A stretch of DNA of 6,707 nt from a virus (Duplodnaviria; Heunggongvirae; Uroviricota; Caudoviricetes), in IMG/VR virus record IMGVR_UViG_2703718818_000009; one strand, 5' to 3'. Of this stretch, positions 1 to 3,000 are shown in pieces; within the stretch, counting starts at the first letter, position 1, and every line of letters starts with the position of its first letter. The position numbers were made by a program.

Positions 1-3000
1 TGGACGGATGCGGAAAACAATGATGTGCCGGTGACAGCAGAAGAGCTTATTGCGCTGAGTGAAGCGGCAGAGCAGGCGATGTTCACTAAAGGGATGGAAA
101 TCCACGTCCGGCAGCGCACCATGAAGAAGGACCTGGAATCGCTGAGCAGTGCGGATGAGATCCTGGCATACAGGGTTGGCTGGGCACAGGAATAACAGAC
201 AAAAAGATGGGGGACCATCACCTCCCCCATGAACTGAGTCAATTATACACTTGTGAAGTATTTACTATGCGAATAAATACTGTCACGGAAAGTGCAGGCC
301 TGGATGTGATGGAAATCATGTTTCCGGCGCATCCTGTTGATATGGATAATTTTTCAGATTTCCGGAAGTGAGAGTTTTTGGTGTTTCCATACCAGCCACA
401 GTTGATGTGTGTTGTGGCGCTTGGCAGTGCGATTAAAGGAGCAGAGGGAATAAAAAACGGGGGCATGACCAACCCCCGGTACAAGGAAGGAGTAACTACA
501 ATGGAAAAATTAATGAAGACCTTTAGTGCTACGTTATATGGCGGATAAAGACTGCCACAGGGAAGTTTGCAGAAACAGTGATGCCGATCGTGTTTCTGAC
601 GCTCTTCTCTGATAAGAGTAATTTTTCAGATTTCTGGAAATCTGTATTCTGCACAGGCGCAATTGTATGCCGCCTTTAAAACTTCAATTCAGTGACTCAC
701 CTGCCATTCAAATTTTCGGATACCAGACAACCATGCCTTATATCGATATAACAACTATGCGCGGGATGATGCCAGGCGTTATTGCATCTATGCTGCCAGA
801 TCATTCTGCTGTACTGGCAGAAAACTGTCATTTTCGCTATGGAGTGATCACGCCTGAACACCAGATGTCAGAGGCTGAGAAAACATTCGCGATTAAGCCG
901 AAAACCATTTTTCATTACCGTGACGATTTCTGGTTTGCATGGACGGATGTGGTGGATGTGATCCGCAGTCCGGTCGCTCAGGACTCCCACGGGCGTATTT
1001 ACTACACTGACGGGCGTTTTCCTAAAGTGACGGATGCGACCATTGCCACAAAAGGGGACGGGAATCACCCGACATCATCGTATCGTCTGGGGATCCCCGC
1101 GCCGACGACAGCACCTGTCTGTACTGTTCAGCAGGGCGGTGATGTTTCTGACGATAACCCGAATGATGACGAAACCCGGTTTTATACGGAAACCTTTGTC
1201 TCAGATTATGGTGAAGAAGGTCCGCCAGGTCCGGCGTCTCTGGAGGTAACACTCCGTACTCCGGGGACTGCGGTACAGCTGACGCTGTCTCCGGTGCCAT
1301 TGCAGAATGCCAGTATTAAACGCCGCCGGATTTATCGCTCTGCATCAGGTGGAGGAGAAGCGGATTTTTTACTTGTGGCTGAACTGGATGCATCCGTGCT
1401 CAGTTACACGGACAAAATACCGGGGAAAAACCTTGGACCTTCTCTGGCGACATGGGATTACCTGCCGCCGCCAGAGAATATGACAGGCCTTTGCCTGATG
1501 GCTAATGGTATTGCCGCCGGGTTTGCCGGTAATGAAGTGATGTTTTCGGAAGCGTATCTGCCGTATGCATGGCCGGAAGTGAATCGTCACACGACGGCAG
1601 AAGATATTGTGGCTATCTGTCCGCTGGGAACGTCACTGGTGGTGGCGACAAAGGGGGAGCCTTATCTGTTCAGTGGTGTATCGCCTTCCACAATTTCTGG
1701 CTCCAGAATTCCTTCCATGCAGGCATGCCTGAGCCGAAGAAGTATGGTGGCGATGGAGGGATTCGTACTCTATGCTGGGACAAACGGTCTGGTATCTGTT
1801 GATGTAAACGGTAATACAGCACTGGCAACGGAAAAGATTATTTCACCTGAACAGTGGCAGAGTCAGTTTAACCCGGCGTCCATTGTGGCTTATTCCTGGC
1901 GTGGTGAGTACATTGCCTGTTACACGAAACCGGATGGTAAGCAGGATGTGTTTGTATTCAGTCCGGTGAACATGGATATCCGTTATCTCAGTACACCGTT
2001 TGACTGCGCATGGGTTGATCTCGCGAAAGATATGATGCGCGTGGTGACAGGAGACAAAATGTCAGTGCTTGCCGGGGGCTCTCTGCCCTCCACGATAAGG
2101 TGGCATTCAAAAATTTTTTCATTACCTGAAAGAACCTCTTTTTCCTGTATCAGGGTGAAATCTCCGGCGCCTGAGCGGGTGGGGATCACCATTATGGCTG
2201 ATGATGTTCCTGTGATTCATTTTGCGCCGGGTACGTTTAAGGGAAGTGTGGTGAGACTTCCGGCAGCAACCGGGCAAAACTGGCAGGTGATGGTATCCGG
2301 ATTCGGGCAGGTGGAACGAATAACCCTGAGTACATCGATGTCGGAGATGCCGGTATGACCAGAAAACCGTGGCGTGCGGGGAAGGATTTATCCACAGTTG
2401 TGGAGAACATGGAAATTGGCACCGGGCAGCGTGGTGACGGACGCCACGCATTTGTGACCCGTGAGGAACTGGTTGGTCTTAAACTCGCCCGGCGTCGAAC
2501 ATCGGGTGGTGCCTCATATGCACTGAATCCGGGTATTGAGATTGACAGTACTTTAATGACTGTTGATTTTCCCACAAAACCGCTGAATTTTAAGGCGACA
2601 GGAGGATTTGGCTCGGTTCTTCTTGAATGGGATATGCCTAATTATCGCGGACATTCACTGACTGAAATCTGGCGGGGTACGGAGGATGACCTTGCTGATG
2701 CAGTGCTGGTTGCCACGACGCCGGGGCAGGTTTACGGCGATCCGGTTGACCCTGGCTGGTCGGGATTTTACTGGATACGTTTTGTTAACGCGGCAGGAGT
2801 GAAAGGTCCATGGAATGCTGAAAAAGGCACTCAGGCACAAACACAGATCGGCGTGAAGGCCATCATTGACCAGATCCGCGATGAGGCTGCAAAGTCGCCG
2901 GTTGTGTCCGAGCTGCGTAAAGAAATAAAAAACGCGCAGGGGCAGGCTGTAAAGGATGCTGCAATTAAGACAACCGAAGTTGTGGGGACTCTCAGGGAAG

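Follow-up and report, generated by a model that had tools for sequence, protein, structure and literature searches.

What do the short open reading frames (ORFs) at this prophage locus represent, and why do they share a peptide motif? The window, meaning the whole stretch analysed, comprises 6,707 nucleotides of a Caudoviricetes genome (IMG/VR record IMGVR_UViG_2703718818_000009). It begins with the 3' end of a plus-strand DUF4376 tail-fibre-module gene (1-195; stop TAA 193-195; Pfam PF14301, E 6.5e-8); PQ600364 names it a 672-nt 'tail fiber protein', and RefSeq loci call it a 'DUF4376 domain-containing protein'. Further downstream lies a plus-strand virion/tail gene of 563 aa (667-2358), homologous to 933W L0124 and Sakai ECs_1232. 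A preliminary description had noticed two repeat units in this region and three plus-strand ORFs, regarded either as candidate small proteins or as relics of a duplicated gene end. All three ORFs exist. The first occupies 207-371 and specifies 54 aa ending ...VMEIMFPAHPVDMDNFSDFRK. The second (501-548) has 15 codons, MEKLMKTFSATLYGG, and its ATG at 501 stands 8 nt behind the SD sequence AGGAAGGAG (484-492). The third (581-679) encodes 32 aa from its ATG, or 33 aa if GTG 578 is taken as start, and overlaps ATG 667 of the 563-aa ORF.

The 21-bp repeat TAATTTTTCAGATTTCCGGAA reported as common to both units is indeed far beyond chance: it occurs exactly at 347-367 and with one mismatch at 619-639, and none of 200 dinucleotide-preserving shuffles matched it. 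Similarity extends over 30 nt with 87% identity (338-367 and 610-639), and the palindrome TTCCGGAA lies within the first copy at 360-367. The units are homologous end to end (201-367 against 451-639, 124 identical of 194 aligned columns), with an alignment score of 43 compared with 10.2 +/- 1.7 in shuffles (maximum 21.5); without the 30-nt repeat the score is 24, compared with 9.3 +/- 1.5. The intervening spacer (370-447; no strand was assigned to it or to the repeat copies) is kept in L007 and L009-L011, which are among the homologous loci compared with the window. Neither DUF4376 nor gp38-like nor L0123 gene ends show significant similarity to it, and descent from any of them was rejected. 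Units 1 and 2 are old, diverged modules and not products of recent duplication.

Read on the minus strand, the repeat is TTCCGGAAATCTGA followed by AAAATTA, that is, a partial Leu/Phe codon, Pro-Glu-Ile, a stop codon and the first bases of a 3'UTR. The conserved repeat is the end of an opposite-strand gene of the ykgJ family, and NFSDF(R/W)K is the reverse-complement translation of this gene end, not the tail of a small protein. The parent is a 109-aa YkgJ-family gene (PF03692, CxxCxxCC; E 1.5e-11 for the intact product) that related lambdoid prophages carry intact at their right end, where it directly follows the DUF4376 tail gene on the opposite strand, convergent with it. A YkgJ family cysteine cluster protein is annotated in L005, L006, L008 and L012, and of 60 E. 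coli matches listed for window 196-369, 27 have the gene annotated beneath them; copies in E. coli number about 350. Its product ends in ...AKYELPEI*, encoded by ...CTTCCGGAAATCTGA; the last four codons (LPEI*) are phage-specific and are followed by a 3'UTR of about 125-150 nt and the gene's own intrinsic terminator. Up to about codon 105 it is an approximately 80% identical paralogue of K-12 ykgJ, and K-12 lacks both the LPEI* tail and the 3'UTR. The paralogue derives from chromosomal ykgJ; Stx and lambdoid prophages have been described to capture the ykgJ/ecpE region (PMC8112680). The gene is phage-borne: intact copies adjoin potB in L005, L006 and L008 and lie upstream of yodB in L012. Since they adjoin different chromosomal genes, we rejected the idea that the ykgJ fragment is an integration-site (attP-linked) copy of a target gene.

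Unit 1 (196-369) is identical in 172 of 174 bases to the gene end of L005 on the minus strand; it keeps four ykgJ codons with their stop, followed by the 3'UTR and an intrinsic terminator of the same strand. The 3'UTR (231-353, minus strand) is the sequence found downstream of the intact gene in L005. Remnant 1 (354-369, minus strand) comprises the stop codon (complement of 354-356), Leu-Pro-Glu-Ile (357-368) and one further base. Its homology stops at 369/370, probably a deletion joint: phage 1720a-02 and the potB/yodB-side prophages run on past 369 into ykgJ coding sequence. The TGA at 369-371 that closes the 54-aa ORF was formed at this joint. Directly after the ykgJ stop, some 40 nt of the 3'UTR (~315-353) are nearly invariant among unit-1 copies that are otherwise 20-35% diverged. 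This counts against pure decay, and a decay model needs recent recombination at this place.

Unit 2 (448-670) is older and more diverged than unit 1. It aligns with the ykgJ gene end plus the whole 3'UTR of the L012 type, keeping 14 codons, the stop, the 3'UTR and a terminator. Its diverged 3'UTR copy (479-625, minus strand), aligned to unit 1 and to L005/L012, holds on its plus strand the 15-codon ORF with its SD and ATG 501, and there the 32-aa ORF starts as well. Remnant 2 (626-670, minus strand) consists of the stop (complement of 626-628) and the last 14 codons, diverged to AYNCACAEYRFPEI from ACNRARAKYELPEI; over 643-669 it shares 21 of 27 positions with the ykgJ gene, and no significant similarity extends past 672. 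A degenerate unit 2 also forms the L0123-L0124 spacer of 933W (score 27.5 compared with 11.1 +/- 1.6 in shuffles).

The window contains no CxxCxxCC domain, and because only terminal codons are kept, 4 in one unit and 14 in the other, we class the element as a remnant and not as a gene. A minus-strand ORF at 239-484 crosses the spacer, remnant 1 and the 3'UTR, encoding at most terminal ykgJ codons. The intact prophage genes (WP_071795297.1 on NZ_CM149872.1 and WP_001367470.1 on NZ_CP012376.1) are the same DNA as the units, but the window misses 95 to 105 of their 109 codons and YkgJ protein cannot be made from it. Of the preliminary alternatives, the relic of a gene end was essentially right as to the gene end, whereas its strand is minus and its copies are old rather than recently duplicated.

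Could the plus-strand ORFs of 54, 32 and 15 aa nevertheless be real small proteins, with NFSDF(R/W)K as a functional tail and the hydrophobic 32-aa product perhaps a toxin or membrane peptide? Besides the existence of the ORFs and the strong SD ahead of ATG 501, annotation speaks for this, PQ600364 listing 207-371 and 405-548 as hypothetical proteins, and in 10 of 14 unit copies the NFSDF frame stays open for 30 codons. However, two minus-strand frames are just as open (13/14 and 10/14 copies), and comparison of frame with nucleotide conservation across homologues found the repeat kept and the frames not, the outcome that the preliminary description had named as refuting. The 54-aa ORF is intact in near-identical copies only and meets a stop after 11 codons in L003, L006, L007 and L008. 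Frameshifting indels in or just before the motif occur in unit 1 of L012, in unit 2 of L011 and of L009/L010, and in phage P13374, where a 1-nt insertion makes the motif read VIFQDFWK in another frame, without ATG. Homologues of ORF 581-679 have 11 codons in L009/L010 and are frameshifted in L011. As for the 15-codon ORF, SD or ATG is lost in three of four diverged homologues: ATG is changed to CTG in L007, L009 and L010, the SD is lost in L009 and L010, and both are kept only in L011. Substitutions between the window and diverged copies are spread evenly over codon positions (for example 7/7/6 and 6/9/5), with dN/dS of about 1-2. ATG 207 is the first triplet of a minus-strand terminator stem of -14 kcal/mol and has no SD. 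None of the ORFs matches a Pfam family, and a comparison of the 54-aa ORF with 5.8 billion sequences gave just 7 similar protein clusters, most of them partial and none from outside E. coli. A motif scan in one genome per species gave six matches, none in Escherichia/Shigella records; L018, the match that was inspected, is part of a 622-aa ORF with no relation to the units.

Type I toxin-antitoxin peptides (Hok/Ldr/Ibs-like) are likewise short and fairly hydrophobic and come from ORFs that may be transcribed in antisense. In contrast to them, the window ORF is not conserved and has neither an Rfam antitoxin RNA (Sok-type or other) nor a family match. The minus-strand gene fully accounts for the conservation, and it is very unlikely that the three ORFs are real small proteins. 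We judge the 54-codon ORF to be spurious, an antisense reading of 3'UTR and remnant 1, and the 32-codon ORF to be the same for the 3'UTR of unit 2 and remnant 2; the 15-codon ORF is judged not conserved.

The position of the 32-aa ORF suggests another role, that of a leader (uORF) whose translation is coupled to that of the 563-aa gene, or of an N-terminal extension of this gene with a frameshift. This reading starts from homology of the first codons of the ORF to the annotated start of 933W L0124 (window 574-600, cagtgATGCCGATCG...); in addition, the ORF's stop (677-679) overlaps ATG 667, and a good SD is absent at both ATG 667 and ATG 733. The sequence shared with the L0124 start is, however, 3'UTR remnant and not a conserved coding start. 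Conservation of the 563-aa protein begins at Met23 (ATG 733): upstream of MPYIDITT, encoded from this ATG, 933W and the window are unrelated, RefSeq homologues start at the equivalent ATG, and 933W has a good SD (AAGGA) directly ahead of it. Moreover, P13374-type phages possess the 563-aa gene without any ATG-initiated upstream ORF. A leader or extension is hence extremely improbable. The annotated ATG 667 lies within remnant 2; the start of the 563-aa gene (667 or 733) falls in foreign, antisense-derived sequence and is worth checking.

On the minus strand, each unit ends in a GC-rich hairpin with a U-run directly after it, and both are predicted Rho-independent terminators. Terminator 1 (197-230) has an 8-bp hairpin (230 to 207) and the U-run CUUUUUGU (206 to 197), present on the minus strand only; terminator 2 (448-478) has a 7-bp hairpin (478 to 458) and the U-run UUUUUUAU (457 to 448). 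Predicted fold energies are -14.5 and -14.0 kcal/mol, respectively. L011 and L012 carry another hairpin sequence at the place of terminator 1 and with the same polarity, and terminator 2 is kept with stem variants in L007 and L009-L011. Three hairpin versions thus occur at one position, every time with the U-run on the minus strand.

Such terminators raise the question whether each unit is a minus-strand sRNA gene, 3'UTR-derived or with its own promoter at GTGGCA, producing RNAs of ~55 and ~80 nt that end at the terminators and were kept after loss of ykgJ. A -35-like GTGACA/GTGGCA (281-286 and 554-559) is conserved throughout the 14 copies, an A/T-rich hexamer lying 16-18 nt downstream of it, and unit 2 persists, though degenerate, in 933W. 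It also counts for this possibility that prophages encode many short Hfq-bound sRNAs (PMC4104026). Nevertheless, promoter-like matches do not exceed the level of shuffles (2 found, 1.8 expected), the -10-like hexamers are weak and variable among copies, candidate seed stretches differ between copies, and the shared structure found by RNAalifold is the terminator only. Rfam gives no match within 1-1000, neither the Pas probes nor any of the 17 EcOnc northern-probe sequences in the supplement of the EcOnc paper match the units, and Hfq-CRAC peaks are absent from the equivalent spacer of Sakai Sp5 (1287460-1287755). Judged from these sequence features, a minus-strand sRNA in each unit is unlikely. 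The more specific version, a tandem sRNA gene pair from the 3'UTR of the ykgJ paralogue, with its promoter at the conserved block GTGGCA and the two terminators described (197-230 and 448-478), is quite improbable; if true, Stx phages and lambdoid prophages would retain the units after coding loss, and in lysogens the RNAs might target mRNAs of the host or of the phage. Presence of the GTGGCA/GTGACA block in all 14 3'UTR copies could reflect some retained function and counts against the remnant reading.

Known RNAs and promoters were compared individually. The Hfq-bound prophage sRNAs of EHEC/EPEC (AgvB, AsxR, EcOnc, PasA-D) resemble the units in prophage location, small size and a terminator with U-run, but are mostly encoded near PR'/stx or lysis genes, whereas the units lie elsewhere and have no sequence match to them. 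We rejected an anti-sRNA of AgvB/AsxR type (a GcvB mimic from the CA-rich minus-strand tract 415 to 398), as those genes lie 3' of PR'/stx and the probes do not match; a Pas sRNA, PasB being 'embedded in a structural operon' yet without probe match; an EcOnc Hfq-CRAC sRNA of Sakai Sp5, with 0 peaks in the equivalent spacer; and the microRNA-size RNA 24B_1, which maps to the lom-downstream region. The only match from the 24B_1 check was to the EcOnc53 probe, at 5554-5581. A sigma-54 promoter at TGGCAC was also rejected, its spacing to the GC element not fitting by eye.

With these readings weighed, window 196-670 very probably consists of the debris of a prophage cargo gene, non-coding and in two copies. 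Its borders coincide with changes in relatedness. The match to phage 1720a-02, the potB-type prophages and L012 ends at 369/370; homology of 98-99% to the P13374/phi191 group of Stx phages starts at 612; that of L009/L010 ends at ~624 and that of L011 at ~672. Since breakpoints with several independent relatives fall exactly at the remnants, these mark mosaic joints. We propose that deletions of ykgJ coding sequence left both remnants in a 933W-like Stx1c phage, and that recombination between lambdoid prophages and 933W-like phages may have used them to swap tail-fibre modules. The hairpins would now merely halt stray antisense transcription or have no role, and the short plus-strand ORFs would be by-products of the remnants.

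Comparative papers on HK97/HK022 and HK620 reportedly describe boundary ('linker') sequences that are conserved where the modules of lambdoid mosaics join. As in the present case (369/370 and 612-672), these are short patches where homology between phages starts or stops. The patch described here differs in having an identifiable origin, a decayed cargo gene, and recombination at it is proposed from the breakpoints.

A second comparison concerns 'attB-in-PP_2' (Nakamura et al. 2021, PMC8112680), the ykgJ/ecpE intergenic (5') side, which serves other phages as an attachment site. Its chromosomal source and its place in the prophage, the cargo region beyond the tail-fibre genes, are the same as in the window, and many Stx prophage records have ykgJ 5' fragments close to their right ends. 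The window, on the contrary, has only the ykgJ 3' end with the phage-specific 3'UTR. Nor does the window show similarity to the 21-bp attB-in-PP_1 repeat, which was rejected as unrelated.

The element is an ordinary gene remnant and does not imply a new mechanism. Hypothetical-protein calls at 207-371 and 405-548, and by extension at 581-679, are most likely spurious, also in related E. coli records. For the phages themselves, a decayed cargo gene may serve as the shared patch at which long-tailed lambdoid prophages and short-tailed 933W-like Stx phages exchange receptor-binding tail modules, and such exchange at the remnants would bear on the evolution of host range in Stx phages.

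The window matches Escherichia phage phiSTEC1589-Stx1c (PQ600364.1, from position 38928), a short-tailed, 933W-like Stx phage, at 99.9% identity. It opens with the last part of a DUF4376 tail-module gene (1-195; Pfam E 6.5e-8), followed by a region without long ORF (196-666), in which the PQ600364 annotation places just two short hypothetical ORFs (207-371 and 405-548). Next comes a 563-aa gene (667-2358), homologue of 933W L0124 and Sakai ECs_1232, and downstream of it lie a tail-tip fibre gene, two small genes and an Ail/Lom gene. Two labels in PQ600364 look wrong: "virulence determinant Bor" (4630-5364) is an Ail/Lom beta-barrel by Pfam (E 1.8e-32), and "endopeptidase Rz" (3922-4539), located in the tail/lom region, has no Pfam match. 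Directly 3' of the Ail/Lom gene, a terminator-like hairpin with T-run (5373-5409, plus strand) gives a sub-threshold Rfam match to Xanthomonas sX5 (23 bits versus gathering score 50), which is probably merely the hairpin.

The preliminary description had reported a 21-mer, TAATTTTTCAGATTTCCGGAA, repeated in two units, and three short plus-strand ORFs (207-371, 54 aa; 501-548, 15 codons; 581-679, 32 aa), whose coordinates and sequences we confirm. The repeat is real: one copy lies at 347-367 and a second, with one mismatch, at 619-639, and it was matched in none of 200 shuffles. The units are homologous end to end (201-367 versus 451-639, 124 of 194 columns; score 43 versus 10.2 +/- 1.7 for shuffles), and the alignment still scores 24 when the repeat, in its extended 30-nt form, is removed (shuffles 9.3 +/- 1.5). 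A perfect 8-bp palindrome, TTCCGGAA, lies inside the repeat at 360-367; the second copy (632-639) reads TTCTGGAA.

Of 5426 complete E. coli genomes searched, 179 contained matches to the window. Most cover 196-369 alone and lie in lambdoid prophages, at the right end; in 27 of the 60 matches listed, the matching sequence extends into a gene on the minus strand whose annotation reads "YkgJ family cysteine cluster protein". This ykgJ paralogue, present in several fetched loci (L-numbers below), encodes 109 aa (Pfam PF03692 CxxCxxCC, E 1.5e-11) and terminates in ...NEACNRARAKYELPEI*, coded by ...AAATACGAACTTCCGGAAATCTGA and followed by AAAATTATCC. The 21-mer is the reverse complement of TTCCGGAAATCTGA+AAAATTA. 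The NFSDF(R/W)K peptide shared by the 54- and 32-codon ORFs is thus an antisense translation of the end of the ykgJ paralogue (last codons and stop) and of the bases that begin its 3'UTR.

Intact copies are found beside potB (L005, L006, L008) and upstream of yodB (L012), and two-unit versions with truncated paralogue adjoin yfhH or fieF. Since intact copies are flanked by differing chromosomal genes, the paralogue is prophage cargo rather than a target of integration. From the start codon to ~codon 105 it shares ~80% identity with the chromosomal ykgJ of K-12, and its LPEI* tail and 3'UTR have no counterpart in the sequence downstream of K-12 ykgJ; the repeat therefore lies at a junction of captured host and phage DNA. 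Nakamura et al. (2021, PMC8112680) have reported that Stx and other lambdoid prophages captured the ykgJ/ecpE region. In many Stx1a/Stx2a prophage records (L014 339-425, L015 983-1087, and ~50 other Stx prophage records), fragments near the right end encode no more than the first 30-40 residues of the paralogue, consistent with the published ykgJ/ecpE-derived attB-in-PP_2; the L015 fragment sits between dinI and nleC in an effector-carrying cargo region. In phage P-EibE, a stem_loop annotated by the depositors where the eibE record ends (L013 3-36; AF151676.1 3420-3453) falls within a region that tblastn aligned with the C-terminal 27 codons of the paralogue.

Unit 1 (minus strand, 369->196) is identical to L005 at 172 of 174 positions and comprises the last base of codon 105, LPEI*, ~125 nt of 3'UTR and a terminator hairpin. 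Its homology ends at 369/370, so the TGA closing the 54-aa ORF was created by a probable deletion joint. Unit 2 (minus strand, 670->448), a copy that has diverged, retains the last 14 codons (AYNCACAEYRFPEI* versus ACNRARAKYELPEI*), the stop, a 3'UTR nearest to the L012 type and a second terminator; past 672, no significant similarity to the paralogue was detected. The ~40 nt directly 3' of the ykgJ stop are near-invariant among unit-1 copies otherwise diverged. The spacer between the units (370-447) shows no similarity to the neighbouring gene ends. It is kept in L007 and L009-L011, and a CA-rich tract on its minus strand (415->398, CCACAACACACAUCAAC) resembles GcvB target or mimic sequences. 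In 933W, the L0123-L0124 spacer is a unit 2 that has degenerated further (score 27.5; shuffles 11.1 +/- 1.6, maximum 18.5), which accounts for the resemblance of the annotated L0124 start (cagtgATGCCGATCG) to that of the 32-aa ORF. The explanation of the repeat is an ordinary one: at a mosaic joint, a convergent prophage cargo gene has left two tandem, diverged remnants, and the shared peptide is an artefact of antisense reading.

The proposal that the ORFs encode small proteins is not borne out. The 54-aa ORF is whole only in near-identical copies and ends after 11 codons in L003, L006, L007 and L008, where other ATGs give ORFs of varying length. Frame-breaking indels lie in or beside the conserved motif in L012 unit 1 (1-nt deletion), in unit 2 of L011 and of L009/L010, and in P13374, where the motif, through a 1-nt insertion, becomes VIFQDFWK and there is no ATG. 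Over 29 ungapped codons, substitutions between the window and diverged copies are spread evenly over codon positions (e.g. 7/7/6), with dN/dS ~1-2, and two minus-strand frames are as open as the plus-strand motif frame. ATG 207 lacks an SD, and a -14 kcal/mol stem begins with this triplet. SD and ATG of the 15-codon ORF are both kept in L011 only; ATG is CTG in L007, L009 and L010. Protein databases hold just seven clusters similar to the 54-aa ORF (54-84 aa, all E. coli, mostly partial), and Pfam search of the short ORFs gave no match.

Each unit contains a hairpin with a U-run behind it, and only on the minus strand. Three distinct hairpin sequences occupy this position across loci, always with the same polarity, and are therefore predicted to be terminators of the ykgJ paralogue. 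The same hairpins would also suit a minus-strand sRNA, as would a GTGACA/GTGGCA block (281-286 and 554-559, minus strand), conserved in 14 of 14 distinct copies, which by its sequence could be a -35 element. But the -10-like hexamers after it are weak and variable, none being consistent; promoter-like matches are at chance level, and RNAalifold on the 14 distinct UTR copies found the terminator as sole shared structure. The sRNA reading is possible but weakly supported, because the units match nothing in Rfam and no Pas or EcOnc probe, and the equivalent Sakai Sp5 prophage spacer has no Hfq-CRAC peak. The island (T)TTCCGTGGCAGT, containing the block, is the most conserved part of the ykgJ-paralogue 3'UTR. 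Elsewhere in the window, the EcOnc53 northern probe matches 5554-5581 (27 of 28 positions), in the beginning of ORF 5538-5939. EcOnc53 is a minus-strand Hfq-CRAC peak directly 3' of lom in Sp5, "not detected" by northern; the probe includes, as complement, the -10 box proposed for the phi24B 24B_1 small RNA.

ATG 667, the annotated start of the 563-aa gene, sits within remnant 2 and is doubtful. Codons 1-22 (667-732) bear no relation to those of 933W L0124; the conserved part of the protein starts at MPYIDITT (ATG 733), and RefSeq homologues in Sakai (ECs_1232) and strain 48 start at the equivalent position. Neither ATG is preceded by a good SD in this phage; in 933W, AAGGA precedes the 733 equivalent.

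Homology to independent relatives begins or ends at the remnants. Phage 1720a-02 and the potB/yodB prophages match up to 369 and then continue into ykgJ, L009 and L010 match from 196 to ~624, and L011 matches up to ~672. The P13374/phi191/Ss-VASD group of 933W-like phages matches from 612 (98-99%), with an unrelated gp38-like module before it. From this distribution we infer that the remnants may have been used as patches of shared sequence for exchange of tail-fibre modules.
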